Positions 5,171-50,948 of a stretch of 64,000 nt of DNA are shown in pieces. A program made the translations under genes and the position numbers. Position 1 is the stretch's first letter. Each line of letters begins with the position of its first letter. This stretch comes from Flavobacteriales bacterium. GTDB taxonomy: Bacteria > Bacteroidota > Bacteroidia > Flavobacteriales_D > Crocinitomicaceae. The notes under the pieces were generated by a model, which searched no databases, had not been told where the DNA came from, and was given only the letters and a program-made list of their open reading frames with translations. The DNA is taken from contig CANFRV010000001.1 in NCBI GenBank assembly GCA_947449575.1, forward strand, positions 89,121 to 153,120, in the 5' to 3' direction.

Positions 5171-6541
5171 ATGGACGCTCTAATTGTCATTTTTTTAAGT
5201 GGTTTAATTTCACTTTTTGTCGCTTTTGCAAAGAAACCTGTATATGTGCTTGCGACGGCTTCAGTAGGGTTGGTGACGGCTGCAGTTTTATTAATGAATC
5301 AGTGGAATACTCCTTGCACCTTATTTTCTAGCTATAGAGGTCTAGATTTTAATCATAGTGCCATTGCTTATTCGTTGGTTGCGATTTTATTTACTTTTCT
5401 TTCTGTTTTGGCAGGTTATAAGTCTTTTAAAGAAGAATTAGAGCATACGGGTGATTATGTAGCTCTTTATCTTTTTTCGTTAACAGGAGCGATGATTATG
5501 CTCTCTTTTACAGATATGTTTATGTTTTTCTTAGGTTTAGAAATTTTATCAATTCCAATCTATATTTTAGCAGGTACGAAAAGAAAAGATATCAAATCAA
5601 GTGAAGCTTCATTAAAATACTTTCTAATGGGTGCTTTTGCAACGGGGATCTTGTTATTCGGAATCGCTTGGATCTATGGTGCTACCAAATCTTTTAATTT
5701 GAATGAAATTGCAATGGTGATTAATGGAGAGCAAAATCATTCTTCCTTATTATTTATTGGAATATTACTAATGATGAGTGCATTTTTATTCAAAGTGGGA
5801 GCAGCGCCTTTCCATTTTTGGAGTCCAGATGTGTATGAAGGTAGCCCGAATATTGTCACTGGTTTTATGGCTTCAGTGGTGAAATTAGCAGCTTTCGGTG
5901 CTTTCATGAAATTATTTGGAATGTATTTTACAGGTTTGTACGACTTCTGGGCACCCGCTTTAATGTGCATGGCAATTGTGACCATGTTTGTTGGTAATTT
6001 ATCAGCACTTACTCAAGTTAAATTTAAACGATTGCTAGCTTATTCCAGTATTACACATGTTGGATATGCTTTGTTGACGATCTTGTCAAAAGACCTAATG
6101 AATGAAATGAATTTACTATTTTACTTATTCTCGTATGGGTTCTCAGTAATCGCATTGATTGTCATTTCTATGATTTTAAATGACGAAGAAGATCGATTAG
6201 AATCTTTTAAAGGTTTAGCAAAACGTAATCCAATTTTAGGATTTATAGCTGTTTTATCGTTATTATCCTTAGCCGGTGTACCTCCTTTAGTGGGATTCTT
6301 TGGTAAATATTTAGTTTTCTCAAGTGTATTCGCTCAATATCCTACGTTGGTGATCATTGCGATTATTAATTCTGGTATTGGTATTTACTATTACTTAAAA
6401 ACAGTGATGACGGTTGTTTCTAAAGATCAACTAGCAGAACCAACTGTCACATTATCCGTTTCTCTATTGCAATGGGTTGTTTTGTTGCTTTGTGCAGTAG
6501 GATTGTTGTTTGGAGGATGTTTTATTCAATACTTAGGGTAA
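5171..6541 (+). CDS. nuoN: NADH-quinone oxidoreductase subunit N (antiporter-like)
   Basis: ND2-like sequence (FKVGAAPFHFWSPDVYEGSPNIVTGFMA). Last gene of the operon. Confidence 0.88.
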   Translation: MDALIVIFLSGLISLFVAFAKKPVYVLATASVGLVTAAVLLMNQWNTPCTLFSSYRGLDFNHSAIAYSLVAILFTFLSVLAGYKSFKEELEHTGDYVALYLFSLTGAMIMLSFTDMFMFFLGLEILSIPIYILAGTKRKDIKSSEASLKYFLMGAFATGILLFGIAWIYGATKSFNLNEIAMVINGEQNHSSLLFIGILLMMSAFLFKVGAAPFHFWSPDVYEGSPNIVTGFMASVVKLAAFGAFMKLFGMYFTGLYDFWAPALMCMAIVTMFVGNLSALTQVKFKRLLAYSSITHVGYALLTILSKDLMNEMNLLFYLFSYGFSVIALIVISMILNDEEDRLESFKGLAKRNPILGFIAVLSLLSLAGVPPLVGFFGKYLVFSSVFAQYPTLVIIAIINSGIGIYYYLKTVMTVVSKDQLAEPTVTLSVSLLQWVVLLLCAVGLLFGGCFIQYLG

Positions 6542-8392: not shown

Positions 8393-9523
8393 CTAAGGTT
8401 TATATATTCTGCAAGAGATTGCGCGGTGATCACTGTGTATTTCTTCTTGAATTTTAAATTGTGCGGATTGCAGGTTCTGTGAATGGAAAATGTAATCGAT
8501 TCTTCCAGCTGGAACTCTTCCAGAATATGTGGCACCAATCCCTGAAGCACAATTTCTAAATGCATCAATCATTTTTTGATTGAATTGATTATAGGTATAG
8601 GATAAAGGTGTATCATTAAAATCTCCGCAAATAATCACTGGATAGGGGGATGTTTTAATATGCTCCACTATTGTCAGGGCTTGTTCAGCTCTTTTAGGAA
8701 AAGCAATTCTTAGTTTATCTAACATCAATCTAACGTTTGATTTTTTAAATTCAGCATGCTCGCGCACTTCCCCAAAGACGGCATAATCATCTTTTTTAAA
8801 TTTTATCGATTGAAGATGTACATTATAGATTCTAAATGTATCTTTATTCTTTACGATATCAGCGTAAATACAATAGTTATCATCATTGTGGTTTTCGTCT
8901 TTAAAGACAACATCTCCTTTTGCAATCATAGGGTATTTTGATAACATTGCCACTCCAAAATTTTGTCTACCTTTTAGTTTGTGGCTATACCTTTCATGAT
9001 AATCTTTTATTTTTAATAACTTTCTAAGTTCATCTCGAGTTGAAAAATTCGTAGGTTTATCTTGGTGATAAAATTCTTGAAAGCATATTACATCTGGATT
9101 TTCGGTTTGAATATATTTAAAAATAGCATCTCTATTTTCATATTTTTCAGACATGGTCCATTGGTATAAATCAAATAAACGAACATTGTAACTCATCACA
9201 TGTAAAGAAAGTTCGTTTGAGGGCAATATTTCTGGGTCTGAACCAAAGGAAACCATTCTAAAATGTAGTTTACCTCCTACAAGGATAACGAATAATACGA
9301 CCAAAGCCCACTTTGATTTAGCAATTGTCCAAATAATCAAAAATAGGAGGGCGAAAAGAAATATAATCGGATATGCTAAGCCAAAAAAGGGTAGAGGCCA
9401 AAATGTCTTCGGGTGAATAAATGGGCATAAATAAGCCAACACTAAGCTGCTTAAACAGATAATTGTTGCAATCTTAATCCATGAAGAGAATCGCATTATA
9501 CTTCGGATTAACTTACTTCCCAT
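8393..9523 (-). CDS. Membrane-anchored endonuclease/exonuclease/phosphatase (EEP) family protein
   Basis: N-terminal TM helices followed by EEP-like motifs (MSYNVRLF, FQEF, GDFNDTP, SDHRA). The start is uncertain: Met codons at 9523 or 9496 are more plausible than the ORF-track start at 9589, which lies deep in the upstream gene. Confidence 0.75.
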   Translation of the reverse strand: MGSKLIRSIMRFSSWIKIATIICLSSLVLAYLCPFIHPKTFWPLPFFGLAYPIIFLFALLFLIIWTIAKSKWALVVLFVILVGGKLHFRMVSFGSDPEILPSNELSLHVMSYNVRLFDLYQWTMSEKYENRDAIFKYIQTENPDVICFQEFYHQDKPTNFSTRDELRKLLKIKDYHERYSHKLKGRQNFGVAMLSKYPMIAKGDVVFKDENHNDDNYCIYADIVKNKDTFRIYNVHLQSIKFKKDDYAVFGEVREHAEFKKSNVRLMLDKLRIAFPKRAEQALTIVEHIKTSPYPVIICGDFNDTPLSYTYNQFNQKMIDAFRNCASGIGATYSGRVPAGRIDYIFHSQNLQSAQFKIQEEIHSDHRAISCRIYKP

Positions 9524-10454
9524 CTTGACTTTGCTTAAATAAAAATTCTTTTTCTGATTTTGATAAGGATTCGTAACCTGATTTAGCAATTTTATCTAAA
9601 ATAACATCTACTTTTATTTGTCTTTGTTTTTTGTCGTAATTATATTCTTCATCCGTTTTTACTCCTCCTCGCGCACTTCCGCCTTGATGGATCGTAAATT
9701 TCGGTTGTTTCTTGCTTGTAATTCTAGAGAAAATATTTTTTATGGATTGTATTAATCTTTCAAATAATGAAATAATATTCTTTGAGCTATTTATATTTTG
9801 TATCGACACTATTCCAAGAACTGCGCCCCCGATATGGGCAAAATGAGCAGTGCCATCTGGTTTTGAAAGTGAAAATAAATTCATTACTAAGTAGATGCAT
9901 GCAAGATAGATTAATTTTATCGGAAAAATACCAAATAAACTTACTTCTGTGCTTGGTCGGTAAAAAGCAAGAGCCATAAAAATAGCCATTACAGAGCCAG
10001 AAGCACCCACTATCACTGTTTTTGTTTCATGTGCAAAAAGAGGGAAAAAAGTATGCGCTAAGATTTCAAAAATTCCGCCAAGAAGTCCGCCTAAAATGTA
10101 GGTATATAAGAGTCTTTTTTGACTAAATAATTGCTCAAAAGCTTTTCCAACAAAGTACAGCATCAGCATATTAAGAAGCAAATGCATAAAGCTAAAATGC
10201 GCAAAAATACTTGTAATTAAACCCCACGGTTGTACTATAGCTTCAGATATATTAGTGTCCAAAGCGAAGACAGTTGTGTTAAATTCCTCAATAAAAGATT
10301 TAAATTCTCCCTGCATTAGTCCACCAAGAACTGAGACTAAGCCGACAAATAAAAAAACTAGTAGATTGATAAAAATCAACTTGACAGTCATACCACCAAA
10401 ATAAAATTGGTGTTTTACTTCTTCTGTAAAAGTTCGTTGTGCGTTCATTACCAA
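9513..10454 (-). CDS. Rhomboid family intramembrane serine protease
   Basis: Polytopic protein with the catalytic GASGSVMAIF serine motif, HFSFMHLLLN and HIGGAVLG histidines, and a charged C-terminal tail. Confidence 0.8.
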   Translation of the reverse strand: MVMNAQRTFTEEVKHQFYFGGMTVKLIFINLLVFLFVGLVSVLGGLMQGEFKSFIEEFNTTVFALDTNISEAIVQPWGLITSIFAHFSFMHLLLNMLMLYFVGKAFEQLFSQKRLLYTYILGGLLGGIFEILAHTFFPLFAHETKTVIVGASGSVMAIFMALAFYRPSTEVSLFGIFPIKLIYLACIYLVMNLFSLSKPDGTAHFAHIGGAVLGIVSIQNINSSKNIISLFERLIQSIKNIFSRITSKKQPKFTIHQGGSARGGVKTDEEYNYDKKQRQIKVDVILDKIAKSGYESLSKSEKEFLFKQSQDGK

Positions 10455-11239
10455 AAGTTTTTCTTATCCGTTTTACGCCAATAAAGAATCATGATGGCTC
10501 CTGCAATTGCACCACCAACGTGGGCTAGATGAGCAACATTGTCGCCTTGTGTGCCATTAAAGCTTAGATAAAGTTCAAATAAGAAGTAGGCACCTACTAA
10601 AAACTTTGCTTTCACTGGAATGGCAAAATACAGCATGAATTCCGTATTCGGAAAAAGAATTGCAAAAGCTGCCATTACCCCGAATACAGCCCCAGAAGCA
10701 CCAACCATGGGAGTACTGCAAAAACTAATGTATTTTTGTAATAAATTAGTATCGATTACTTGTTGACCAGATAAGGTATGTAGATAATTGTTTACTTCAG
10801 TTACTATTTCCTCCATAGATTGGCTATTATTCATAATAGAATCAATTCTATTAATATCTAGAACACCAGTAAATGAATTCCTAAGTTCACTGATTTGATA
10901 CATGCCCATCGCATTATACAATGCGAAAGCGCCTAATGCCGAAATGATATACAAGACAAAATATTTTTTTGGCCCCCAAAGTCTTTCTAGATAAGATCCT
11001 AAAATTACTAAAAGGTACATATTCATGAACAAATGCATGATACTGCTACCATCGTGCATGAAAAAATGAGTAACAATTTGATAAGGTCTAAAAAGAGGGG
11101 AATTCATATAGTAAGCCCCAAGATCTCTGCCTAGATCAATATTTTGAGAACCCAATATAAATGTAACGATAGAAAGCATCACATTTATTAATAATATATT
11201 CTTTGTAACTTGAGGTATGTTATTTAAAAAAGAAAACAT
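10448..11239 (-). CDS. Rhomboid family intramembrane serine protease (second paralogue)
   Basis: GASGAVFGVMAAF, HFFMHDG..HLFMN, HVGGAIAG. 7-nt overlap with the downstream rhomboid gene. Confidence 0.8.
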   Translation of the reverse strand: MFSFLNNIPQVTKNILLINVMLSIVTFILGSQNIDLGRDLGAYYMNSPLFRPYQIVTHFFMHDGSSIMHLFMNMYLLVILGSYLERLWGPKKYFVLYIISALGAFALYNAMGMYQISELRNSFTGVLDINRIDSIMNNSQSMEEIVTEVNNYLHTLSGQQVIDTNLLQKYISFCSTPMVGASGAVFGVMAAFAILFPNTEFMLYFAIPVKAKFLVGAYFLFELYLSFNGTQGDNVAHLAHVGGAIAGAIMILYWRKTDKKNFW

Positions 11240-14711: not shown

Positions 14712-17702
14712 ATGAAGATAGTGAGTCTCTCGAATGCGGACAGGTCACTAAAAAAAGAAACAAATTATCTACAAATGAACATTATACGTTACTCAAAGTA
14801 TTTTCTAGCTGCAGGAATGATAGTAGCTGTGGGGGTTGTTTTTTCAGCATATACTGCTGGGAAAAAGATAAAAAAGTCTGCTAAGATTGAGATTTCTTCA
14901 GAAGATGTTTGGGCTCAAAAGCAATTATCAGAAATGACACTGGAAGAGAAAGTGGGGCAATTTTTCATGGTTTCTGCTTTTTCAAATCAAGGGGAAAAAC
15001 ATTTACAAGAGGTAGAGGATTTGGTGACAAAACAAAAAATTGGAGGAGTGATCTTTTTTCAAGGAGAACGAGATAATTTAACATCTTCCATTAGTCGTTT
15101 TCAAAATGCTAGTAAAACACCACTTTTAATTGGAATGGATGCAGAATGGGGGGTTCAAATGAGAATTTTCGGAACTGAAAGGTTTCCTTATGCGTATACA
15201 ATTGGAGCGGCAAATGACTTAAATTTGTCTAAGAAAATGGGCGAAATGATGGCGCAAGAATGCCGTGAGTTAGGAATTCATATGAATTTCTCTCCAGATG
15301 CAGACGTCAATAGTAATCCTGACAATCCGGTCATTGGTTTTAGATCTTTTGGACAAAATCCTAAGCATGTTGCTTCTCATGTAAGCGCAGTGGTGAAAGG
15401 TATGGAAGAAAATGGCATTATGACAAGTATTAAGCATTTCCCGGGTCATGGCGATACGGAGTTAGATTCTCATCTTGAATTGCCAACTGTTTCCAAGTCT
15501 TTAGGTTCAATTAATTCCGTTGATTTTCTTCCTTTTAAAGAAGGAATAAAAGCGGGTGCTTCTTCTGTGATGATTGGTCATTTAAATGTACCAGCTTTGG
15601 ATAATTCTGGTTTACCGAGTAGTTTATCTAAAAGAATCATTAAGGGCGTTTTACAAGATTCTTTGGGGTATAATGGATTGGTTATCAGTGATGCGTTAAA
15701 TATGAAAGCAGTTGCTGATAAATATGGGAAAACGGAAGTTTGCGTTAAGGCTTTTGAAGCAGGTTGTGATATTTTATTATTTCCAGAAAGTGTTAGTGAA
15801 GCCATTTCTGCCATTTCTGCAAAAGTAAGAGAAGGAAAAATTACACAGATAGAATTGGATCAGCGCTGTTTAAAAGTTTTAAAAGCAAAGTATAAATTTA
15901 TCATAAAGCCTTCAGAATTCAAATCATACACAGAGGGGGAAATTGATTGGGCTAAAAAAGAGGTATACGAAAAAGCGATTACTGTTCTTAAAAATGATAA
16001 AAATTTATTACCATTCAATACGTTAGATAGAAAAATTGCTAGAATCAGTATAGGTGCTCATGCAGATCCATTTGGAGAGGGAATTGAACGATTTTCAAAG
16101 ATAGACCACTTCCATTTTTATACAGTTGAAGAAGCCAACGAAATGTTAGGAGATAAGTTGAAATCGTATGATGTCATTATCACTGCTCTGCATGCAAGTT
16201 CAGTTCGACCTAAAAATGACTTTGGGATGCCAAAAGAGTGGCGAAGTTGGATATTAAATTTACCTAAGAATAAAGATAATGTATTGATTTTATTTGGAAA
16301 TCCTTTGGCACTGAAAGAAAATTGCGAATTAAAGCATTTTAAGTCTGTTGTTCTTGGATATGAGAATAATCACATTGCTTTAGAGAGAATGTCACAATTT
16401 CTTTTTGGTGCGATTTCAGCAACTGGTAGGCTTCCTTTTACAATTTCAGATGAATATCCGTGTGAATTTGGGAAAACAGTTGAAAGTAATGGTAGACTAA
16501 AATATTCTCAACCTGAAGAATTGGGAATTGATCCAAATAAATTGAAAGAAATAGATCAAATCGTTAAAAGTTCGATTGCTGCAGGGGCATTTCCTGGTTG
16601 TCAAATCGTTTTTTCTGTTCAAGGAAAAATTATTTATCAGAGAAGCTTTGGAACTCAAAGATATGAAGACAAAATTCCAGTTAAAAATATAGATGTATAT
16701 GATATTGCTTCTATCACCAAAATTGCAGGATCCACGTTAGCTCTCATGAAATTGCAATCTGAAGGAAAATTTTCAGTCAATAAACGTTTGAAGGATTATA
16801 TACCTGAAGTCACTGGTGGATCTGAATTTGGAAACATCTTAATCAAAGATATGATGACGCATCAAGCAGGTCTAACCGCTTGGATTCCATTTTATAAAAA
16901 AACATTGGTAAATGGTGAACTGAATCCTAAAATTTATTCCAAAGAAAAGAAAGCAGGTTTTGAGAAGCAGGTTGCTAAAGATCTTTGGATCAAAAATTCT
17001 TACACAGATACAATTTACCAACGTATTTTATCTTCGGATTTGGGTGTGAAAAAGTATGAATATTCTGATTTAGGGTATTATTTTGTTAAAAAAATTATAG
17101 AAAAGCTAACGTCTCAAAGCATCAACGAATATGTTACAGCGGCTATTTATGAGCCAATGGGTTTACAATTTTTACGTTATAAACCTTTAAATTATTTTCC
17201 TCTTTCTCAAATTGTGCCCACAGAAAATGACAAAGCATTTCGTAAGCAATTAATTCATGGATATGTGCATGATCCAGGTGCTGCAATGCTAGGTGGTGTT
17301 GGAGGTCATGCAGGATTATTTTCAAATGCCACCGATTTATCATCCATTATGCAATTGTTTTTAAACAAGGGGATGTATGGAAATGTTTCATACTTAGATA
17401 AAGCAGTTGTTGAGGAATATACTCGATGCCAGTTTGGTCCTGAAAATAGAAGAGGAATAGGTTTTGACCGACCTAAGAACTCAGGTGGTGGAACATGTCA
17501 TGAATTAGCATCTCAATCTAGTTATGGACATTCAGGATTTACAGGAACATTGGTTTGGGCTGATCCAAAATATCAAATCAATTATGTTTTTCTCTCAAAT
17601 AGAGTTTATCAGGATCAAGAAAATTGGAAGATACGCGATATGAATATTCGAACAAATATCCAAAAGGTGATTTATGAGGCTGTCATGTCAGCAAAAAAAT
17701 GA
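14712..17702 (+). CDS. Fusion protein: glycoside hydrolase family 3 (NagZ-like) N-terminal domain + serine beta-lactamase/PBP-fold C-terminal domain
   Basis: GH3 motifs (KHFPGHGDT, ISDALNM). Class-C-like motifs (ASITK = SxxK, YSD, HSGFTG). TM/signal anchor near the N-terminus. An alternative start is the Met at 14775. Confidence 0.85.
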   Translation: MKIVSLSNADRSLKKETNYLQMNIIRYSKYFLAAGMIVAVGVVFSAYTAGKKIKKSAKIEISSEDVWAQKQLSEMTLEEKVGQFFMVSAFSNQGEKHLQEVEDLVTKQKIGGVIFFQGERDNLTSSISRFQNASKTPLLIGMDAEWGVQMRIFGTERFPYAYTIGAANDLNLSKKMGEMMAQECRELGIHMNFSPDADVNSNPDNPVIGFRSFGQNPKHVASHVSAVVKGMEENGIMTSIKHFPGHGDTELDSHLELPTVSKSLGSINSVDFLPFKEGIKAGASSVMIGHLNVPALDNSGLPSSLSKRIIKGVLQDSLGYNGLVISDALNMKAVADKYGKTEVCVKAFEAGCDILLFPESVSEAISAISAKVREGKITQIELDQRCLKVLKAKYKFIIKPSEFKSYTEGEIDWAKKEVYEKAITVLKNDKNLLPFNTLDRKIARISIGAHADPFGEGIERFSKIDHFHFYTVEEANEMLGDKLKSYDVIITALHASSVRPKNDFGMPKEWRSWILNLPKNKDNVLILFGNPLALKENCELKHFKSVVLGYENNHIALERMSQFLFGAISATGRLPFTISDEYPCEFGKTVESNGRLKYSQPEELGIDPNKLKEIDQIVKSSIAAGAFPGCQIVFSVQGKIIYQRSFGTQRYEDKIPVKNIDVYDIASITKIAGSTLALMKLQSEGKFSVNKRLKDYIPEVTGGSEFGNILIKDMMTHQAGLTAWIPFYKKTLVNGELNPKIYSKEKKAGFEKQVAKDLWIKNSYTDTIYQRILSSDLGVKKYEYSDLGYYFVKKIIEKLTSQSINEYVTAAIYEPMGLQFLRYKPLNYFPLSQIVPTENDKAFRKQLIHGYVHDPGAAMLGGVGGHAGLFSNATDLSSIMQLFLNKGMYGNVSYLDKAVVEEYTRCQFGPENRRGIGFDRPKNSGGGTCHELASQSSYGHSGFTGTLVWADPKYQINYVFLSNRVYQDQENWKIRDMNIRTNIQKVIYEAVMSAKK

Positions 17703-36028: not shown

Positions 36029-37828
36029 TTAATTACTCTCAATAATCTCTTTCCAAGCTCTCTCAGCTGCTGCTACTCCATTTTTTGAACTGATATACGT
36101 ATTTAATAATTTAATTTCATTGCACTGGTACTGAGGCTCTGGTAAAACAGGTACTTCAATCAATTTTATTCCCTTGTTTTCTTTCATGCAGAATGAAAAA
36201 TAAGTTGTAAAATCTTGGACGGTTGAACAAATTTTAGCTTCGCCACCATAGCAAGAAATTAATTTCTGAACGTCAAAATCTTTGGAAGAACAATTGTATA
36301 TTTCTGCATCACTATTTTTTCCGAGATGAAATATATTATTGCGCATATAGATGATGGTAATATTTAGTTCATCTTTCATGAAATGTATGAGTTCATTTAG
36401 TTGAAAATGGAAACCGCCATCTCCCGTAATTACAACTGCGGCATCATTTGATTTTTTTACTTTTAACACTTCACAAAGAGCTCTAGCATAAGGTAAAGAA
36501 GTTCCCATTGCTCCGTACCAAGCATTGCAAATCCAACCTCTTCCAATTTCAGATTTTTTTATTTTCAGACTGTAACTAGCGAAGTAGGAGTTGCCAACTT
36601 CAGGTAAATAGATACAAGGTTGATCCGTTTTATCTTGAATTGAATTTAATACGTTTGTTAAATTGTGAAAATCTACTTTATCGTGGGCTAAAAGTTGAGG
36701 CGATTCTTGAGTATTAAATTCAAATTCAAAGGGTTGTATCTCGCTTTTTAATAATTTTTCAAATATTTCTAGTAGATCTTTTTGTAATTTACTAGTTCCT
36801 TTTAATAATGTCTTAGTAGGAAAAGTGCTTAATTTATGTGTTCCTGTATCAAAAGCCATATTGGCATCCATTTGAAAAATACTTGTTGCCACTTCAATCA
36901 CATAATCCGCTTCCTTGTCAATGTATTTTCGATGATGTAAGTCACTAAAAACACCATTATAAGCCCCTAGACTCAGAGGGTGATAATCATCTAAAATTCC
37001 TTTTGCAAACCAACTTGAAACAAATGGGATATTATTTTTTTCGCAAAATTGAAGAATTAAATCGATTAATTTTTTATTTAATTTGAGTGCTGCTCCAAAA
37101 TAAATCAGGGGTTTTTTTGAAACTTTTAATTTAGCAAGAATGTTTTTTACAATAAAATCCCCTGAAGCAAAGGATGTTAAATCGGTATTTAGTTGATTTT
37201 TATCGATTGGTAGAACTATCGCCTGTGTTTTTTTAAATACGATATCCCTGGGTATTTCAATAAATACAGGTTCGTTGTGTGTAAACGCATGCGAAACCAA
37301 TTTAAAAAAGTGTTCTCCAGCTAGGTCAGGTTGTCCTTTTGTTCTCTCTCCTTGCAATCTTTCAGACCGAATTCCTAATTCTTTGAAACTATTTAAACAT
37401 GCGTCGTATTCAACATTCCATGATGAAAAAGACGTGACTGTATGGTGAATTGCAGTTCTCCCGATTTCACTTTCGCCTGGCGCGCCTGAAATAAATATAA
37501 CGGGAAGGTTTTCACTTTTCGCCAATGCTATTGCGCTCGCACAAGGGAGACTTCCTACGGTATAAGTCATTATGCAACAGCCTATTCCTTCGATTTCCGC
37601 TTGTCCGCAAGCTGAAAAAGCGGCATGCATTTCATTACTGGAAGGTAATAATTGAAAATCAGCTTCGAACGCCTTTATCAGATTTACAGCAAAGTCCCCA
37701 CCAATTCCGTACATCCTTTCAATAGAAAAAAAACTCAAGGTTTTAACCATGCTTTCCGCAAGGGTGGGAAGGGAGTCATAGAACTCTTGTCCTAAGTCCG
37801 AACTATTCGTTTCTGTAAGTGTTGTCAT
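36029..37828 (-). CDS. Thiamine-pyrophosphate-dependent 2-keto-acid decarboxylase family enzyme (IpdC/PDC-like)
   Basis: The N-terminal PYR domain has the catalytic Glu context (SSNEMHAAF), GAPGESEIG and AIHHT. The TPP-binding motif is GDGGFHFQLNE-x18-NN. Confidence 0.8.
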   Translation of the reverse strand: MTTLTETNSSDLGQEFYDSLPTLAESMVKTLSFFSIERMYGIGGDFAVNLIKAFEADFQLLPSSNEMHAAFSACGQAEIEGIGCCIMTYTVGSLPCASAIALAKSENLPVIFISGAPGESEIGRTAIHHTVTSFSSWNVEYDACLNSFKELGIRSERLQGERTKGQPDLAGEHFFKLVSHAFTHNEPVFIEIPRDIVFKKTQAIVLPIDKNQLNTDLTSFASGDFIVKNILAKLKVSKKPLIYFGAALKLNKKLIDLILQFCEKNNIPFVSSWFAKGILDDYHPLSLGAYNGVFSDLHHRKYIDKEADYVIEVATSIFQMDANMAFDTGTHKLSTFPTKTLLKGTSKLQKDLLEIFEKLLKSEIQPFEFEFNTQESPQLLAHDKVDFHNLTNVLNSIQDKTDQPCIYLPEVGNSYFASYSLKIKKSEIGRGWICNAWYGAMGTSLPYARALCEVLKVKKSNDAAVVITGDGGFHFQLNELIHFMKDELNITIIYMRNNIFHLGKNSDAEIYNCSSKDFDVQKLISCYGGEAKICSTVQDFTTYFSFCMKENKGIKLIEVPVLPEPQYQCNEIKLLNTYISSKNGVAAAERAWKEIIESN

Positions 37829-41788: not shown

Positions 41789-42703
41789 ATGCTTTCTTTA
41801 TTTTTTCGAAATATAATTCTTTTTGGATTCTTTCTTTTAATGAACCAATTTATTTATGCGCAATCTGATGTAGAAATAGATTCCTTGGATTCTATATCAA
41901 TTCCTTCAAAAAAAAATATTTCTATACCTGAATTTAAATTAATTAAACTTGACACGTTAAAGCTCGGTGAATTTGATGAGGTAGTTTCTGGTTCATATTG
42001 CGCTATGGGGATTCCCTATGTGTATGATGCGCTTCATTCCTTCAATTATCGTCGCGTTGATAGGTTTGGAGGATACATTAATGGGAAAGTAAATACAGCG
42101 CTTGAGAATATTCGAAAAAAAGGCTTTAAGTCGGATGTAAAACAACTATATATACAAATTGATCCACAAACATTGACGGTATATTGGTTTGCATTAGTCG
42201 GACCAAGTGCAGATGATAAGTGCTATGTCCGAATTGATAGCCGTGGATCAGCAGGTGGGGGTCTTGCAGCAATGGAAAAGCAATTGCCTTCGATGCATGC
42301 ATTGTATCCATCTCTTACAAGCGTAAAATTACTTGAATTTAATGAGAATGTGATTAAATGTTTTGATTGGAATGGTAATCCACTTAATTCTATTTGTAGT
42401 TCAATCAATATTTGTCAGCACTTTTATAAATATTACGATTCACAAGTGGACGTAACCGTTTCTATAGAAGAATACACTTTAAAAAATCCTTGCAGTAATG
42501 CATCAGAAGTAGTTTATGTCCCTGCAATTAAAAAAGCCAAACCCAAATCCAAACCTCAGCAGATAAAATATAAGGTCAAGTCTGGCGATAGTTTATCTGA
42601 GATTGCTGAAAAGTACCATACATCCGTTTCTCAAATAAAAAAAGCAAACGGACTTCGTTCAGATACTCTGCAAATAGGTAAAGTGTTGAAAATTCCTAAA
42701 TAA
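41789..42703 (+). CDS. Exported protein with an unknown Cys-containing N-terminal domain and a C-terminal LysM domain
   Basis: Signal peptide. LysM: YKVKSGDSLSEIAEKYHTSVSQIKKANGLRSDTLQIGKVLKIP. Confidence 0.75.
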   Translation: MLSLFFRNIILFGFFLLMNQFIYAQSDVEIDSLDSISIPSKKNISIPEFKLIKLDTLKLGEFDEVVSGSYCAMGIPYVYDALHSFNYRRVDRFGGYINGKVNTALENIRKKGFKSDVKQLYIQIDPQTLTVYWFALVGPSADDKCYVRIDSRGSAGGGLAAMEKQLPSMHALYPSLTSVKLLEFNENVIKCFDWNGNPLNSICSSINICQHFYKYYDSQVDVTVSIEEYTLKNPCSNASEVVYVPAIKKAKPKSKPQQIKYKVKSGDSLSEIAEKYHTSVSQIKKANGLRSDTLQIGKVLKIPK

Positions 42704-42838: not shown

Positions 42839-44188
42839 ATGAAATACTTTCTCCTACTTCTCATCTTTACTTGTGTAATACAAGTAAAAGCTCAGTATCA
42901 AATTGGTCACACTACAATTGATTTTGTAGATGTCAATCGCGCAAATAGAATTGTTTCATCAGAGATTTATTACCCAGCCTTGACTTCAGGTACAAACACA
43001 AGCGCAGCAGTAGGTCAATTTCCAGTTATTATTTTTGGTCATGGTTTTGCAATGTCATGGAGTGATTATCAAAATTATTGGGAAAGATATACTCCGAAAG
43101 GATATATTTTAGTTTTCCCTAAAACTGAATCTGCACTTCTATCCATAGATCATCAGCAATTTGGCTGGGACTTACAGTTTTTAGTAAATGAAATGCAACA
43201 GGAAGGTCAAAGAACAGGCTCAGTAATCTATCAGTCAGTCGCTTCAGAAACAGCATTAATGGGTCATTCTATGGGAGGTGGAGCGGCATTTTTAGCGGCA
43301 GATTCTTTATCTGTAAATGGGAATCTGAATTTCAAAACATTAATTGGTTTAGCACCCGCAGAGTCTAGTACAAACGGTGTTTCTTCCATTTCATCTGCAT
43401 CTATTGTTAGTAAACCATCCTTGATTTTTTCCGGAAGTGGGGATGGTGTTACACCTCCAATTGATCACCATATACCAATGTATAATGGGATAGCAGCCGA
43501 TTGTAAAGCCTTTGTAAATATAATTGGTGGAGGACATTGTTATTTTGCTCAATCTGATTTTATTTGCGATTTTGGAGAGGCGGGAACGATCAGTAATGTT
43601 GTGATAACAAGAGCACAGCAACAGCAAATAACCTATGATTTATTAGATAATTGGTTAGCGTTTTATTTAAAAAACCAATGTGATAATCGCAATCTTTTCA
43701 TGTCAGATATTTTGACTTTACCAGGAATTATTGGTCAGACAACATGTGTTGAAAGTGCTTTAGTAATAATTTCTGAAAGTGCAGGTAATTTAATTTCCTC
43801 AGTTACCAGTACTAGTTATCAATGGTTTTATGAAGGAAACCCAATCAGTGTTTCTAATAGCATTTCTATAACTCCCACTTTAACTGGTAATTATACGGTT
43901 CAGATTACCTATCCTGATGGTTGCACCAGGTTAAGTCCGGATTATTATTATCAGGTCTTGGGCATGGAGGAATTCACAAAGTATTATTCTATTTCCCCAA
44001 ATCCAACGGATGGAGTTATTACTATTAAAACAAATTCTCCAGAAAAAATAGCCGTTGAATTATTTGATGTTTTCGGAAAATTTATTTCTTTGATTGAAAC
44101 TTCAGATAAAATCGATATTAGTTACCTTCAAAACGGAATGTATTATTTATCAATAGGAGAAAAAAAACACCTAATAATTAAAATTTAA
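42839..44188 (+). CDS. Secreted alpha/beta hydrolase (dienelactone hydrolase/cutinase-PETase-like) with T9SS C-terminal sorting domain
   Basis: Signal peptide, nucleophile elbow GHSMGGG, candidate Asp (SGSGDGVTPP) and His (GGGHCYF). C-terminal ~80 aa Por/T9SS-type CTD (SISPNPTDGVITIKT...NGMYYLSIGEKKHLIIKI). Confidence 0.8.
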   Translation: MKYFLLLLIFTCVIQVKAQYQIGHTTIDFVDVNRANRIVSSEIYYPALTSGTNTSAAVGQFPVIIFGHGFAMSWSDYQNYWERYTPKGYILVFPKTESALLSIDHQQFGWDLQFLVNEMQQEGQRTGSVIYQSVASETALMGHSMGGGAAFLAADSLSVNGNLNFKTLIGLAPAESSTNGVSSISSASIVSKPSLIFSGSGDGVTPPIDHHIPMYNGIAADCKAFVNIIGGGHCYFAQSDFICDFGEAGTISNVVITRAQQQQITYDLLDNWLAFYLKNQCDNRNLFMSDILTLPGIIGQTTCVESALVIISESAGNLISSVTSTSYQWFYEGNPISVSNSISITPTLTGNYTVQITYPDGCTRLSPDYYYQVLGMEEFTKYYSISPNPTDGVITIKTNSPEKIAVELFDVFGKFISLIETSDKIDISYLQNGMYYLSIGEKKHLIIKI

Positions 44189-44433: not shown

Positions 44434-44441
44434 TAAATTTG
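44434..44441 (+). promoter_or_regulatory. Candidate -7 promoter box (TAAATTTG) upstream of the L,D-transpeptidase gene
   Basis: Exact TAnnTTTG match 83 nt upstream of the ATG at 44524. Confidence 0.35.
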
Positions 44442-44523: not shown

Positions 44524-45840
44524 ATGAAGAAAATCATTGAATTATTATTCAACTTTTATACATTTCCACTTATTATCTCACTAGTTCTTTTTAATAGTTG
44601 TGCTGAAAAATCACAAAAAAAAATTGTAGTAAGAAAAAAGGTTGATGCAACTTCATATTGCTTGAAAATTGAAAGTGAAAATGAATTCTCCGCAAGCTTA
44701 TCTACAAGTGATTTATTTGATGAGAAACACGAGAAAATAAATCTACTAAAGTTTGATACGATTGATACAATTGGACGATCTTGGCATCTTCAAATTGAAT
44801 TACATTCCGATTTTAAATTAGATACAGTTTTAAATGTAAGAAATTTGCATGAATTTAAAAAAAAGGTAAATAAATGCTTTTTGAAGGTTCCTCACATTGC
44901 ACCAAAAAATGCAAACTACGTCTATGAAAACAATGCGTTTGAGCCTTTGGAGGCGGTCAATGGTAATCAATTAGATACTTCAAAACTAAATAAATTAATT
45001 TTCAATTCGATTTCTACAAACAGTGATCATTTATCAATCAATTATCAAAATGCATATTTAAAACCGAGGTACCATTTGTCTCATGAAAAATCTGCTGCTG
45101 GACTAAAAGAATTGAAAAAGTGTGTTGAGACTAAGATTATTTTTAAAATTAAAGATGAGGAAGTCACCATGGATAATTCGATATTTGGAAACTGGTTGAG
45201 TTTGGATACTGCCATGAAAACGAAAATAAATCAAACTAAAGCTGGATCCTTTTTTAGGTCTTTAGCCAAAAAGTATGATGAGATAATACCGAGCGTTTCT
45301 ATTACTTCATCGAAAGGCGAAGTGAAAACTATTAATGGTGGAGATATAGGAGTGCGAATTAATGTAAATAAAGAATCAAATAATCTCATAAGTGATTTGA
45401 GAAAAGGGGAAGAGATAAGTAGAGAACCATACTATAGCATGAAAGGATTACCTGAGGGTGTTTTTGATTCAAAGAAAAATTTTGTAGAGATTAGTTTGTC
45501 AGATCAAAAGTTGTGGTACTATAAAAATGGTGCTTTAATTATTGAAAGTGATATAGTTACTGGCTGTCCAAAACTAGGGCATAAAACTCCTTCTGGTGCC
45601 TTTTACGTAAAATATAAATCAACTAATACTACTTTAAAAGGTCCTGGCTACAGTGCTTTCGTGAGGTATTGGATGCCTTTCAATAATGGGATTGGATTGC
45701 ATGATGCGCAATGGAGAAAATCATTTGGTGGTTCAATATATGTAGGAACTGGATCCCATGGTTGCATTAATTTACCACTGAGCACTGCAAGTATCATTTA
45801 TCAAAATTTATCACCAGGAACTATTGTACTTTGCTATTAA
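44524..45840 (+). CDS. L,D-transpeptidase (YkuD domain) with large N-terminal domain
   Basis: C-terminal YkuD signature (GLHDAQWR ... GSHGCINLP). N-terminal signal/lipobox-like LVLFNSC. Confidence 0.8.
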   Translation: MKKIIELLFNFYTFPLIISLVLFNSCAEKSQKKIVVRKKVDATSYCLKIESENEFSASLSTSDLFDEKHEKINLLKFDTIDTIGRSWHLQIELHSDFKLDTVLNVRNLHEFKKKVNKCFLKVPHIAPKNANYVYENNAFEPLEAVNGNQLDTSKLNKLIFNSISTNSDHLSINYQNAYLKPRYHLSHEKSAAGLKELKKCVETKIIFKIKDEEVTMDNSIFGNWLSLDTAMKTKINQTKAGSFFRSLAKKYDEIIPSVSITSSKGEVKTINGGDIGVRINVNKESNNLISDLRKGEEISREPYYSMKGLPEGVFDSKKNFVEISLSDQKLWYYKNGALIIESDIVTGCPKLGHKTPSGAFYVKYKSTNTTLKGPGYSAFVRYWMPFNNGIGLHDAQWRKSFGGSIYVGTGSHGCINLPLSTASIIYQNLSPGTIVLCY

Positions 45841-45901
45841 AAAGAGGAAGTAGTTATTTAATGTAAATTTTTGTATGTTTACTAAATATTTTTTTTAATC
45901 T

Positions 45902-47689
45902 ATGTCTAAACACGTATCTCTATTTATTTTATTTATTGTCGTATCGTCCTCTATTTTTAGCCAAAAAACAATAGATGAATGGCTTAAGGAAAATAGCTAT
46001 TTGAATAAAGAATATTTTTTTGTAAAATCTGCTCCAATAGAGATAGATAAAAATCCAACTGAAACTATTCTTGAAGCAAGAAAAGTGACTTCCAAAAGTG
46101 ACGCAAAAGATAAACTCATAAAGGAATTGCAGGTAGGGATTTATTTTGTCCCCATAGATTTCTATACAACAGAGGTATATTATTCCTATCATGACGAGAA
46201 AGCTAAAACAATTCAAACTGCAGTGGTTATTAATAAATCTAAGATCAGTTCGTTTTTCATGAAAGATGTGGAAAGACAATATGAAGAGTTACAGTCTTCT
46301 CTAAAAGAAAATGATGATGCTAAAAGTTTTAAAACTGAACAACTAGAAGAAATTTTATCTAATGCAAAACAAACGAAGAAAAAGCTTTCCAACTTACAAT
46401 CTATCGCTTTTAAATTAAATCCAGATATTGATACTAAAGTTGCGTTTATGTGGTTAAATAGCATTGATAATCAGTTGAATAATTTGGGGAGTAAATTAGA
46501 TAACACCATTATTCTTAACCTAATAAAAAAAGCTGAATTTAAATTTACTGCAAATGATTTTATTGGTGCCTATAAAAACTACACAGAGCTTTTAGTTTTA
46601 TATCCAAACAATCAGACTGTGCTAAATGGCAAAGAAAAGTCATTTGAGAAAATTAAATCAACTTTTGAATATAAAATAGATAATTTTGTTCAATCAAATG
46701 ATTATAAATCAGCTATTTTGACACTTGATTCTCTTGTTAATTTAGATGTTGATTTGTATAAAATTTATCAGAGTAAAAAAGAGGACTATAAAATAAAGTA
46801 CTTTTATTCTACAGTAGAAAAAATCGAAAAACTTTTAACCTATCACAGCGTAAGCGTTGTTACTGTGAAAGACCTAATGAAAGAACTTGGAAATATCAAA
46901 AATGTAGATGAACAGAGGTACTTAAAAATAAAAGAAGAAACAGAAAGTCGTTTATTAGACTATGACTTAAAAATTTTAAAGTCTTATGTATACAATAAAG
47001 AATTTAAAACAGCCTTAAAATTTTTGCCTGAACTCAAGTATAATTATCCTAGAAATAAAGCAATAGAAAAAACTGAAAATAAAATTGATAGAAAAATTTA
47101 CACGAATTTTAAAAAGGAATTATTAAGTACAAGACCCAAAATTTATTCATTAGAACCATCCGTGTCCTTAATGACAAGTGAACGCGGAATTAATGATTTA
47201 ATGCAAGTTTCAGTAGATAATTTGTCAATGATGTATTCTCTTGGTATTTATCGTAGATTTAGCTTAAAACCTAAGAGATCGCAAAATCATTTTTCTTATT
47301 CTTCCCTTGGAGTGAAAATCGATTATTTGGATCCTACTACAATTATTAATCGCAATGATTCTCTGTATAATTTATCTGCTCCTAATAAATTTATTAATCC
47401 TCAAATCTCGCTAAGTTTGCGAAAAACATTGTATTTTGACGTAGGTTATGTGAAACGTATTGGGGTAAATGATTTTGGAGCAAAAGATTATTATAGCATG
47501 GGAGCAAGTATATTTATTCCAATTAGAGTGCTTAGTTTTGGGGTAACAGGAAAATACATTTCAGACTTTGTGAAGGGACATACTTTAATGCTAGGTGGAA
47601 GTATTAAAATAAATCTTGGCCTAATAAAAAAGTTTAAAAAAAATGAGAAGGAGGAAATACAAACTAAAATATTATTATTAAAACAGTAG
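45902..47689 (+). CDS. Exported hypothetical protein P1: N-terminal alpha/beta module, helical repeats, C-terminal beta-strand-rich region
   Basis: Signal peptide MSKHVSLFILFIVVSSSIFSQ. Repeated [ND]-[DY]-[FY]-x-x-A motifs (NDFIGAYKNY, NDYKSAILTL, KEFKTALKFL). The last ~170 aa show an alternating hydrophobic pattern. Confidence 0.7.
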   Translation: MSKHVSLFILFIVVSSSIFSQKTIDEWLKENSYLNKEYFFVKSAPIEIDKNPTETILEARKVTSKSDAKDKLIKELQVGIYFVPIDFYTTEVYYSYHDEKAKTIQTAVVINKSKISSFFMKDVERQYEELQSSLKENDDAKSFKTEQLEEILSNAKQTKKKLSNLQSIAFKLNPDIDTKVAFMWLNSIDNQLNNLGSKLDNTIILNLIKKAEFKFTANDFIGAYKNYTELLVLYPNNQTVLNGKEKSFEKIKSTFEYKIDNFVQSNDYKSAILTLDSLVNLDVDLYKIYQSKKEDYKIKYFYSTVEKIEKLLTYHSVSVVTVKDLMKELGNIKNVDEQRYLKIKEETESRLLDYDLKILKSYVYNKEFKTALKFLPELKYNYPRNKAIEKTENKIDRKIYTNFKKELLSTRPKIYSLEPSVSLMTSERGINDLMQVSVDNLSMMYSLGIYRRFSLKPKRSQNHFSYSSLGVKIDYLDPTTIINRNDSLYNLSAPNKFINPQISLSLRKTLYFDVGYVKRIGVNDFGAKDYYSMGASIFIPIRVLSFGVTGKYISDFVKGHTLMLGGSIKINLGLIKKFKKNEKEEIQTKILLLKQ

Positions 47690-47692
47690 ATT

Positions 47693-48166
47693 ATGAAAAT
47701 CAACAGAAATTTTGAAAAGTTATTTATTTTTATTGGACTAGTTTTTTCACTTCAATGTTGTTCGGTTGTAGAAAATTACCCCTCAAATGTACAGGTAGAA
47801 AGTAAAGAAGGTACTTTTAATTATTCAATGAAAGGAGCAGGATCAGGAAAATCGATCAAACTTAGTGTTGAAAATGCTGAAAAAAATATTTTTGAAGTAA
47901 TAATGTTTAGGGGAATTGTTGGTACAGATTTGCAAATTCCATTAGTAGATAATGAAGTTACATCAAGAGATCAAAATAAAAAATTTTACGATGTGTTCTT
48001 TGGTGATAAAATTTATAGAAATTTCATTACGTCTTCAGTAGAAAAATTATCCCCCTCTGAGAAAGTAAAAGGTGGTTTTAAAACATCTGTTAAGTTTTCA
48101 ATAAATTTAGCAGCTTTAAGAGTATATTTAGAGCAAAATAAAATTATAAGAACATTTGGATATTGA
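47693..48166 (+). CDS. Hypothetical lipoprotein P2
   Basis: Lipobox VFSLQC|C. Starts 3 nt after the P1 stop. No catalytic motif. Confidence 0.7.
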   Translation: MKINRNFEKLFIFIGLVFSLQCCSVVENYPSNVQVESKEGTFNYSMKGAGSGKSIKLSVENAEKNIFEVIMFRGIVGTDLQIPLVDNEVTSRDQNKKFYDVFFGDKIYRNFITSSVEKLSPSEKVKGGFKTSVKFSINLAALRVYLEQNKIIRTFGY

Positions 48167-48171
48167 AAATT

Positions 48172-49059
48172 ATGAAAAAAATATTTTTAATTGGTATTAC
48201 ATTTATTTCATTAAATGTGTTATCACAGATTCCAGCAACGTCTTCAAAAGGAGAAGTTACAGTATTAAAGCCTACAATTATGGTCATTCCATGGGTTGAT
48301 AACGATCAAGACATTAGAAGTGTATTGGAGTCCGATTTTAATAAGCGATATGCAGTTTCGATTATGTCAAAAAGTTTTGATGACAGAGGTTATACCACAA
48401 AAGATTTTTTAGAAGTGTTAAAGATTTGCGAAACTTCTCAAATGTTTAATAGTAATACTCAAAAATCGTTTAAAGAAGTTATCTTAGAGCAATCTGGGGC
48501 TGATATGGTTGTTTCTATAGATATGGAGACAATTCCTGGAGATGGAAATCAGGTGAGGGTAATTTTAACATTATTAGATAAACGAACTGGTGCAAAATTA
48601 GGTTCGGAGCAATCAGATAGTAAAAGATTGTATACTCAGGATATTGGAATGTTAACCAAAATGGCAATTGATAATGCCAAAGATTCATTTATGAGTTTAA
48701 TACAGACCAAATTCACAGAAATTGTGAATAATGGGATAGCCATTAAAGTAGAATTTAGAATATCAGCAAATAGCACGATTTCTTTTGATGATGAAACTGG
48801 TGGTCAAGGAGATTTGTTGTCTGAAGTTTTAATGGATTGGCTAAAAAAGAATTCTTTTAAGTCTTATGCAAAAAAAGGAGAAGGATCTACATCTAAATTT
48901 ATTAATTATGAAGACGTAAGAATCCCACTTAAGGATCAAGTAACTGGAAATAATTATGATATTCAAGAGTTTGGAAGATCATTAAGGAAATATATTTATT
49001 CATTAGGATTGAAACCAATCGTTGAATATGGCAGGGGTGTAATTATTTTAACATTTTAA
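48172..49059 (+). CDS. Exported hypothetical protein P3
   Basis: Signal peptide MKKIFLIGITFISLNVLSQ. The ATG lies 5 nt after the P2 stop. An alternative TTG at 48163 overlaps the P2 stop by 4 nt. Confidence 0.7.
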   Translation: MKKIFLIGITFISLNVLSQIPATSSKGEVTVLKPTIMVIPWVDNDQDIRSVLESDFNKRYAVSIMSKSFDDRGYTTKDFLEVLKICETSQMFNSNTQKSFKEVILEQSGADMVVSIDMETIPGDGNQVRVILTLLDKRTGAKLGSEQSDSKRLYTQDIGMLTKMAIDNAKDSFMSLIQTKFTEIVNNGIAIKVEFRISANSTISFDDETGGQGDLLSEVLMDWLKKNSFKSYAKKGEGSTSKFINYEDVRIPLKDQVTGNNYDIQEFGRSLRKYIYSLGLKPIVEYGRGVIILTF

Positions 49060-49062
49060 ACT

Positions 49063-50016
49063 ATGAAATTTATAAAAATATTAAGTTTAATTTCTTTTCT
49101 ATTTATTGTGTTTCATAGTAATGAACAAATTACTTCTGATCAAGTTGGGAATATAACGTTTTCATTAGTTATGCCTGAATCAATAGAGGGTTTTGATGAT
49201 AATTTAATGTTGAAATTAGAATCAAAAATAATTCAAGCAACATCTAAAGTAGCCATTGCAGGAAAAGGTTTTTATTCTGATTTCATACTATATCCAGTGG
49301 TTACTTTTTCAGAAGATAATTCAAGTAATTTTGGCAATAAAAAACTTTACTCCAAAAAAATCAATTTAGATTTATTTATAAAAAGTATCTCAGATGGAAG
49401 AATTTTTTCTTCATATAGTCAAAGTCTTATTGGAGTTGGAGAAAATGAAAATTTTGCATTAATTAATTCCTTGAATGAATTTAATCCGCAAAGCAGTGAT
49501 GTGGAAAGATTTTTTTCAAGTTCTTGCGATAAAATTATTAATTATTTTAACGCCAACTGTGACTATTTTATAGGAAAAAGCGATGCATTAGCAAAGATGG
49601 GTAAATATGATGAGGCTATCGCTCTTTTGCTTTCTATTCCAAATTTGTCTGCAAAATGTCAAACTAAAATAAAAGACATGTCAATCGAAGTATATAAACA
49701 ATACATCAATAAAGAATGTAAAGTACTTCTTAACAAATCGTATGCAGAAAAAAGCTCTAAAAATTATCAAGCCGCACTTGTCATTCTTGCAAATATTGAT
49801 CCAAGTGCGAATTGTTATACTGATTCTCAAGTAATGATGAAAGAAATTGAAAAGTCTTTAGATCAAGATGAAAAGAAAAAATGGGAAACAGAGTTGATGA
49901 AATATAATAATCTAGTTGAAATAGAAAAAATAAAAATTAATGCAATGAAAGAAATTGCAGTTGCTTATTACAATTCAATTCCAAATGCTGTTAATTATTA
50001 TCATATAAAAAATTGA
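49063..50016 (+). CDS. Exported hypothetical protein P4 with duplicated Cys-containing helical module
   Basis: Signal peptide MKFIKILSLISFLFIVFHS. Internal repeat GKYDEAIALLLSIPNLSAKC / KNYQAALVILANIDPSANC. Starts 3 nt after the P3 stop. Confidence 0.7.
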   Translation: MKFIKILSLISFLFIVFHSNEQITSDQVGNITFSLVMPESIEGFDDNLMLKLESKIIQATSKVAIAGKGFYSDFILYPVVTFSEDNSSNFGNKKLYSKKINLDLFIKSISDGRIFSSYSQSLIGVGENENFALINSLNEFNPQSSDVERFFSSSCDKIINYFNANCDYFIGKSDALAKMGKYDEAIALLLSIPNLSAKCQTKIKDMSIEVYKQYINKECKVLLNKSYAEKSSKNYQAALVILANIDPSANCYTDSQVMMKEIEKSLDQDEKKKWETELMKYNNLVEIEKIKINAMKEIAVAYYNSIPNAVNYYHIKN

Positions 50017-50135: not shown

Positions 50136-50948
50136 ATGAAAAAAATAATATTTTTACATCTTACATTTTGCTTACTTTTTCTGACGAGTTGTTCTGGTTA
50201 CAATAAAATTGTAAAAGGAGATAATTATGAAGATAAATTTAGAGTAGCAGGTGAACTCTTTGAAAAAAATCAATACATGCGCTCAGTTACTTTGTATGAG
50301 CAGATATACCAGCGTGTGCCCAGAACTCCTGAAGGCGAATTAGCTTATTATAGATTAGGAAAAGCATACTATGCTGAAAAAGATTATCACATGGCTGGAT
50401 ATTATTTTGGTTCCTTTTATGAGCGATTTACGACAAGTCCAAAGGCTGAAGAGACTTTATTCTTATCTGCTTTATGTTCTGTAGAGAATTCACCTGAAGC
50501 TTCTTTGGATCAAAATGATACAGAATTAGCCATCAATGATTTACAGCAATTTGTAAATAAATTCCCCAATTCTGATTTAATAGACTCTTGTAATAATGTG
50601 ATGGATAGACTTCGTTTTAAGTTAGAAACAAAAGATTATCAAGTAGTTATGTTGTACTCGAAAACGCAAAATTTCAAGTCAGCTATTACCACTTCTCTGA
50701 CGTTTTTAGCAGATTATCCTAGTTCAAAATATGCGGAGGAAATTGGTTTTACCCTTGTTAATTCTTCCTACCTTTTGACAAAAAACAGTGTTGAAGAGAA
50801 AAAAAAGCAAAGAATTGAGGAAACTTTGGAAAGATATCGTAATTTTGTAACACAATTTCCAAATACGCAGTACAAGAAAGATGTAAATTTCATCAGCGAT
50901 ACTATGGAGGAGGAACTTCAAGAATTTAATTCGAAAAAAAAAATATAG
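50136..50948 (+). CDS. bamD: Outer membrane protein assembly factor BamD (TPR lipoprotein)
   Basis: Lipobox LFLTSC|SG and TPR-like repeats. Conserved position upstream of rpoZ-coaBC in Flavobacteriia-type genomes. Confidence 0.72.
   Translation: MKKIIFLHLTFCLLFLTSCSGYNKIVKGDNYEDKFRVAGELFEKNQYMRSVTLYEQIYQRVPRTPEGELAYYRLGKAYYAEKDYHMAGYYFGSFYERFTTSPKAEETLFLSALCSVENSPEASLDQNDTELAINDLQQFVNKFPNSDLIDSCNNVMDRLRFKLETKDYQVVMLYSKTQNFKSAITTSLTFLADYPSSKYAEEIGFTLVNSSYLLTKNSVEEKKKQRIEETLERYRNFVTQFPNTQYKKDVNFISDTMEEELQEFNSKKKI

Follow-up and report, generated by a model that had tools for sequence, protein, structure and literature searches.

We examined a 64-kb stretch of genomic DNA from a Flavobacteriales bacterium (hereafter the window), in which four consecutive open reading frames (ORFs) of the forward strand, P1 to P4, span positions 45902-50016. 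These genes are a rare form of a gene cassette found widely, though sporadically, across Bacteroidota, one headed by P1 in place of two other genes that we term G0 and G1. The P1-headed form is new; the parts of the cassette belong to known structural kinds. With roughly even odds, we read P1-P4 as a complex of Sec-exported proteins that lies in the periplasm, anchored to the outer membrane, where it would act as a passive scaffold or tether or as an accessory to another outer-membrane device. The original prediction, made from the window alone, had proposed an envelope complex, with a possible link to the L,D-transpeptidase (Ldt) encoded upstream, and had noted the gene for the outer-membrane assembly protein BamD downstream. 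The idea of a single exported, non-enzymatic module stood up, and that module proved to be conserved, whereas a functional tie to Ldt or BamD found no support.

The four genes are packed closely, and their positions and spacing, as first predicted, are exact in the ORF list of the window. P1 (45902-47689, 595 amino acids) is separated by 3 nt from P2 (47693-48166, 157 amino acids), a small probable lipoprotein. P3 starts 5 nt further on at an ATG (48172), or overlaps P2 by 4 nt if a TTG (48163) is used, and runs to 49059; public gene calls use the ATG form of 295 rather than 298 amino acids. P4 (49063-50016, 317 amino acids) follows after another 3 nt. Homologous clusters in about 80 other genomes are equally tight, so this packing does not reflect chance. 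A basic n-region and then a hydrophobic core can be read at the N-terminus of each product, bearing out the signal-peptide-like starts assigned to all four. Also consistent with the earlier description, which saw no catalytic or nucleotide-binding motif, neither Pfam nor NCBIfam places a catalytic or nucleotide-binding domain in P1-P4.

The cassette became visible through P3, which is a full-length member of PF19672 (DUF6175; E-value 1.7e-57, 195.2 bits against a gathering cut-off of 23, profile positions 2-286 of 293) with 130 homologues found. The earlier remark that no characterised family could be named is thus partly out of date for P3, even if DUF6175 is itself uncharacterised, and stands for P1, P2 and P4, none of which matches a family above threshold. 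We fetched 80 Bacteroidota species-representative genomes with the DUF6175 profile and read the gene contexts. They come from Chitinophagaceae, Prevotellaceae, Flavobacterium, Saprospiraceae, Cytophagales, Sphingobacterium, Muribaculaceae and other groups, and the same cassette architecture is present in all 80; contexts were also read in Flavobacterium sp. 5, Cyclobacterium xiamenense and Bacteroides congonensis. The canonical order, all on one strand and with gaps of a few bases, is G0, G1 (about 275-320 amino acids, LpoB/CsgG/FlgT-like), a P2-like lipoprotein (about 150), the DUF6175 protein (about 300) and a P4-like protein (about 313). G0, a largely helical protein of about 190 amino acids with a signal peptide, precedes G1 in 51 loci, with a median gap of 2 nt. 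Complete G1-P2-P3-P4 clusters were found in 69 of about 90 loci, the remainder being cut by contig ends; this recurrence of the P2-P3-P4 order answers in the affirmative whether the module is kept in other Bacteroidota.

Window P2, P3 and P4 are homologous to the genes at matching positions in four of these loci (L002, L004, L006 and L008; BLASTP E-values 1e-18 to 1e-103). BLASTP similarity and gene order together show them to be orthologues of cassette genes 3 to 5. A profile scan gave 173 pattern-confirmed DUF6175 hits among 185,579 species genomes, a lower bound given that the scan was pattern-limited, and this number points to a sporadic, accessory distribution. The cassette was nevertheless seen in Flavobacteriia, Bacteroidia, Chitinophagia, Cytophagia, Sphingobacteriia and Saprospiria. 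Its flanks are heterogeneous, with helicases, integrase-like genes and transposases in some loci; around the cassettes, there is no recurring flanking family other than G0, no linked penicillin-binding protein (PBP) gene and no conserved substrate or synthase gene. We found no description of the cassette in the literature, and the papers searched do not mention the DUF6175 family.

At the head of the window cassette, sequence comparison shows P1 in place of G0 and G1. Hidden Markov models (HMMs) of G0 and G1 match nowhere in the whole 64-kb window, and P1 itself has no BLASTP similarity to either protein (hhalign probability at most 1.3%). On these two comparisons, we reject the view of P1 as a divergent form of CsgG or of G0. 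Four other contexts show the gene order P1-P2-P3-P4 as well: L008/L009, where P1 is 41% identical; L092, where it is 31% identical; L001; and the P0002 contig, with genes of 586, 152, 296 and 320 amino acids. In L008 and L092, either a divergent gene or an intergenic region of its own precedes the cassette. The P2 and P4 proteins of P1-type loci are each nearest to those of other P1-type loci, and P3 is nearest to canonical cassettes, a pattern that fits one replacement event together with co-evolution of P2 and P4 with P1.

P1 also occurs outside the cassette. A full HMMER profile scan of 1.84 billion protein representatives identified 85 P1 relatives, among them short forms of about 320 amino acids that correspond to the C-terminal half of P1. 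(A word-indexed search gave five matches for P1 and two for P2, with further homologues obtained via the loci and the full HMMER scan, and a metagenome profile scan with a narrow P1 alignment gave two loci.) One 323-amino-acid relative, comprising a signal peptide, a few helices resembling tetratricopeptide repeats (TPRs) and a barrel, is followed, with a 4-nt overlap, by a 1162-amino-acid PD40/VWA/OmpA_C gene (L100:1614-6070). This coupling suggests that the barrel module serves different periplasmic proteins as an outer-membrane partner. Two relatives lack P2-P4 (L010:10001-11782 and L101:3720-6269); one P1 relative of this kind is solitary, and another follows an unrelated 189-amino-acid lipoprotein and is flanked by WG_beta_rep/TonB_C genes. 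The solitary, short-form and other-partner occurrences mark the P1 family as a modular unit.

We next consider what the individual proteins are predicted to be, starting with the variant head. P1 has no Pfam or NCBIfam family above threshold and no PDB match by sequence or profile. Its AlphaFold2 model, built from an alignment of five sequences, has a mean predicted local distance difference test score (pLDDT) of 75.5 and a predicted template modelling score (pTM) of 0.37, with barrel pLDDT values of 35-82. In order, the model contains a signal peptide, an alpha/beta segment (about residues 24-111), TPR-like helices (112-410), eight strands (415-570) and a conserved amphipathic helix (581-594). 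Foldseek matches the predicted barrel to the OmpA transmembrane domain (1bxw), Ail (2n2l) and OmpX (2m06) with probability 1.0, though with target-normalised TM-scores of 0.46-0.53 and E-values of about 1e-3 for a model from five sequences. As in OmpA, OmpX and Ail, the C-terminal 155 residues of P1 are predicted to form eight antiparallel strands; unlike in those proteins, the barrel follows a 390-residue periplasmic region and is itself followed by the amphipathic helix, and P1 has no OmpA_C domain. The sole match to a Pfam barrel family is OMP_b-brl_2 in one P1 homologue (E-value 0.009), and TPR_Slam is matched in one homologue at 8.7e-6. The P1 helices match BamD and other TPR proteins by Foldseek, and the helical part resembles the C-terminal half of P4 (hhalign 84%; with signal peptides trimmed 89%, E-value 2.4e-6, 203 columns). 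From the model, we propose that P1 is the outer-membrane anchor and docking subunit.

P3 is better modelled (pLDDT 85.5, 59 sequences), with two alpha/beta domains, one at the N-terminus and one after a long helix. Searched against the PDB with Foldseek, its N-domain retrieves GNA1162 (4hrv, E-value 2.9e-5), CsgG (4uv2, 1.3e-4), PelC (5t10, 6.4e-4) and LpoB (4q6z, 1.2e-3), followed by further PelC structures (5t0z and 9h80), FlgT (3w1e), a chain of the Vibrio LPHT ring (8z5n), TolB, LptE and HpaA. Probabilities are about 1.0 for the first four of these and for most of the others, and target-normalised TM-scores are 0.45-0.58 for single-domain targets. In the model, the P3 N-domain therefore has the fold shared by GNA1162, PelC, CsgG, LpoB and the N-terminal domain of TolB. 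All the matched proteins belong at the periplasmic face of the outer membrane, and several of them form rings. PDB profile searches with P3 gave no significant match, and hhalign between G1 and the P3 N-domain falls from 79% with signal peptides to 2% after trimming; as this support is gone, the fold assignment rests on the structure model.

P4 begins with a signal peptide, followed by a putative alpha/beta domain and, towards the C-terminus, by a domain of TPR-like helices with conserved cysteines, nearly invariant in the family alignment. Matches to ARM_TT21 and TPR families are sub-threshold, and P4 has no Pfam or NCBIfam family above threshold and no PDB match by sequence or profile. Its orthologues are the last genes of the cassettes (BLASTP E-values 1e-40 to 1e-103). 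Here the G1 comparison drops from 94% to 35% when signal peptides are trimmed, and an LpoB-like fold of the P4 N-domain is only suggested. We had at first taken homology of G1 with P3 and with P4 as proven, on hhalign probabilities of 79-94%, and downgraded both on the values without signal peptides. In two loci, L066 and L072, no P2-like gene was detected and the P4-like ORF, with 634 and 575 amino acids, is roughly double the normal size; gene fusion, duplication or faulty ORF calling could account for this.

P2 has no Pfam, NCBIfam or PDB match. Its predicted lipobox proved well founded: the lipobox Cys found in most of 28 homologues falls in the same alignment column as the Cys of ..FSLQCCS. 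Likewise, a motif named in the original prediction (FRG..G....PL, ending ..FG[FY]) is conserved across the family alignment, as F-R-G-x-P/V-G/x-S/T...P-L with the C-terminus ..IR-K/T-F-G-Y/F. Homologues at the same cassette position occur in Flavobacterium, Cyclobacterium and Bacteroides (BLASTP E-values 1e-18 to 1e-47).

Among 24 canonical G1 proteins, 22 match Pfam LpoB and 20 match CsgG, with weak matches to FlgT_C and FlgT_M. G1 has a signal peptide but no lipobox. Aligned to Escherichia coli (E. coli) CsgG, it is missing some of the TM1 hairpin segment, and the best result of a PDB search with G1 is CsgG at a non-significant E-value of about 0.3. In some G1 proteins, a glycine-rich hydrophobic stretch (e.g. 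GAVGGAVVGHFVGIGAGFGALAGGAA; L029:4524-5516 and L049:1110-2081) is inserted where others have a short loop; with its glycine-zipper look, this segment might insert into a membrane. The G0 profile (e.g. L006:8146-8691) matches PDB 9l08, an engineered covalently linked cytochrome c555 trimer, at an E-value of 7e-8 over about 95 residues, probably through compositional or helical bias.

These features can be combined into a working mechanism. P1-P4 would cross the inner membrane via Sec, and the C-terminal eight-stranded barrel would insert P1 into the outer membrane, leaving its TPR-like solenoid as a periplasmic docking platform. P2 would be lipid-anchored, and P3 and P4 would assemble on the P1 platform to give a probably oligomeric or ring-like structure on the inner side of the outer membrane. 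In most genomes, G0 and G1 may anchor and organise the complex, as P1 would here. Physical assembly, ring formation, the part of P1 as anchor and the physiological role are all inferred. Because the cassette brings no enzyme, ATPase or inner-membrane component, nor a conserved substrate gene, we favour a passive scaffold, tether or conduit accessory over a powered machine.

Several observations weigh against this reading. The P1 model is weak in its depth, pTM and barrel confidence, and its Foldseek E-values are weak as well. LpoB-like domains in P3 and P4 lost most of their profile-profile support on trimming, which leaves the fold of the P4 N-domain tentative. P1 homologues that stand alone or with unrelated partners indicate that P1 is not obligatorily tied to P2-P4. 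Finally, "scaffold or tether" is a default reading.

The variant also has a use of its own. The envelope of Bacteroidota is very unlike that of the E. coli model, and the cassette is an unexplored envelope module of exported non-enzymatic proteins. The P1 form indicates that a monomeric, predicted TPR-barrel protein can stand in for LpoB/CsgG-like head genes, and it yields a prediction of the membrane-contacting subunit, a bait for pull-down and a natural pair of variants. A bolder version, which we think unlikely, is that the DUF6175 cassette is an undescribed outer-membrane ring machine, a new envelope-spanning tether or translocon whose P2-P3-P4 core takes interchangeable modules, either G0 with G1 or P1. 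If true, the window would present a natural module swap that shows which part does the membrane work.

Two other functions are suggested by the same folds. In an outer-membrane export conduit of the PelB/PelC or CsgG/E/F kind, P1 and a ring of P3 or P4 would guide a polymer or protein out of the cell. The resemblance of P3 to PelC, CsgG and GNA1162 and the CsgG matches of canonical G1, which exceed the Pfam threshold, speak for this, as do the TPR-then-barrel order that P1 shares with PelB, PgaA, BcsC and Slam and the TPR_Slam match in one homologue. The PelB/PelC pair (5t10, 9h80) likewise encodes a TPR-then-barrel protein together with a PelC-like fold. The PelB barrel, however, has 16 strands, and the eight predicted for P1, as in OmpA and OmpX, are too few for a pore; in addition, P3 is not a lipoprotein and has an extra domain, pel biosynthesis genes are missing, and sequence similarity is absent. 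Comparison with CsgG and its partners CsgE and CsgF (4uv2, 4uv3, 6l7a) is similarly mixed. The P3 N-domain fold is alike and small accessory proteins are co-encoded in both systems, but no protein of the window matches Pfam CsgG, P3 and P4 have no lipobox, and G1 has neither a lipobox nor a full TM1 hairpin region. Pfam matches to CsgA, CsgB, CsgE or CsgF are lacking in the region and in the P2 family, and no conserved substrate, synthase or CsgA/B/E/F-like gene lies beside the cassette; casting G0 as the substrate would leave its loss in the P1 variant unexplained. We regard a conduit as improbable, if not negligibly so. Still less probable, in our view, is that the proteins regulate peptidoglycan synthases or constriction in the manner of LpoB, CpoB or TolB, reaching from the outer membrane to periplasmic enzymes. 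That P3 matches the LpoB and TolB-N folds, that most G1 proteins match Pfam LpoB, and that P1 and P4 have TPR-like domains, as do CpoB and LpoA, would all suit such a role, and cell-wall genes lie in the window (Ldt, a LysM protein and a GH3/beta-lactamase fusion). However, P1-P4 have no Pfam LpoB match; the fold match (4q6z/4q6l) is at 1.2e-3, and P3 and P4 have N-termini of the signal peptidase I type rather than those of lipoproteins, with none of the long disordered linker seen in LpoB. GNA1162 (DUF799, Neisseria), LpoB, TolB-N, FlgT, LptE and HpaA are the best structural matches of the P3 N-domain, yet the likeness of the TolB-N/LpoB-like group to P3 is at fold level only, with 10-18% identity and target-normalised TM-scores of about 0.5, and those proteins have other genomic partners; Bacteroidota are not known to have flagella. 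No PBP gene is linked, and the sporadic occurrence of the cassette (at least 173 hits in 185,579 species genomes) in variable genomic contexts is unlike that of a core cell-wall regulator.

The remaining explanation is that of the original prediction, in which P1-P4 are tethers or substrates cross-linked to peptidoglycan by Ldt within a five-gene operon. Ldt (44524-45840, forward strand, 438 amino acids) is a genuine YkuD enzyme (Pfam E-value 8e-21) with a PG_binding_4 domain (3e-8), and its stop codon lies only 61 nt upstream of P1 (45841-45901). The gene order Ldt-P1-P4-bamD is kept in two 98-99% identical assemblies, a LysM protein is encoded nearby (41789-42703), and the short P1 relative described above is coupled to a protein with the peptidoglycan-binding OmpA_C domain. 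However, Pfam finds no peptidoglycan-binding domain in P1-P4. Using HMMs built from window Ldt and BamD, we found no homologue of either within 6-10 kb of the cassette in about 85 other loci that hold all or part of it, whether G1- or P1-headed and including all other P1-type loci, so that Ldt accompanies the cassette in the window and in its 98-99% identical copies only. Taken with a near-consensus promoter element in the 61-nt gap, this makes the Ldt explanation the least probable of those considered here.

That element is a Bacteroidota -7 box with one mismatch, AATTTTTG, at 45866-45873. The gap had been described as free of an exact TAnnTTTG box, which is correct, but the description passed over this near match. 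Exact boxes at 44434 and 50123 are present as stated; the window as a whole contains 98 against 103 expected from shuffling, so presence or absence of the motif carries little weight, and the promoter argument is weak in both directions. Scans with promoter and terminator consensus sequences gave counts at or below shuffle expectation, and no terminator-like site lies on the forward strand between 44000 and 51500. We consider the 61-nt gap a possible cassette promoter. P1-type cassettes elsewhere have no upstream Ldt and must bring their own promoter, and in L092 an exact TATATTTG box precedes the P1 homologue. Rfam and tRNA scans found nothing relevant, and a PADLOC search for defence systems gave no match.

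On the other side of the cassette, bamD (50136-50948, forward strand, 270 amino acids; YfiO 5.5e-27, TIGR03302 2.9e-35) begins 119 nt after P4. Contigs carrying a BamD at least 90% identical to that of the window, from four independent assemblies including GCA_947469985.1, run from nuoL-M-N directly into bamD-rpoZ-coaBC-DUF4835-recN. The nuoN-bamD junction in these relatives maps to window positions 6541 and 50115, with about 96% DNA identity on both sides (blastn). The 43.6 kb that separate the nuoN stop from the bamD start in the window are missing at that site in all four, with breakpoints (6541/6542 and 50114/50115) exactly at gene boundaries. We rejected a mobile island that brought the cassette: the segment holds housekeeping genes (mutL, aroK, a tsaC-like gene and a thiolase gene) and rhomboid genes, and no integrase. 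The housekeeping content and lack of an integrase point instead to a rearrangement. Broken between relatives of about 96% identity and kept in those of 98-99%, the adjacency to Ldt and BamD is lineage-specific, and a functional link to BamD is thus not supported either. Flavobacterium johnsoniae has new subunits of the BAM complex, namely FadL-like BamG, the surface lipoproteins BamH and BamM, and periplasmic BamP, and P1-P4 differ from these in protein kind (PMC12611786). Adjacency to attractive genes can be purely local.

Other genes of the window deserve brief mention. Two genes upstream of P1, positions 42839-44188 encode a PETase/chlorophyllase-like alpha/beta hydrolase with a Por_Secre_tail, the C-terminal sorting domain of the type IX secretion system. 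The segment 35976-38134 (2.16 kb), which contains a gene for a thiamine pyrophosphate-dependent enzyme of the MenD/acetolactate-synthase-like kind (36029-37828), is missing from the 98% identical assembly L098. The GH3/beta-lactamase fusion (14712-17702, 996 amino acids) joins a NagZ-like GH3 domain to a beta-lactamase/PBP-like domain and possibly acts in peptidoglycan recycling. On the minus strand, two overlapping adjacent genes at 9513-11239 encode rhomboid-family proteases, one of them with a DUF6576 tail.

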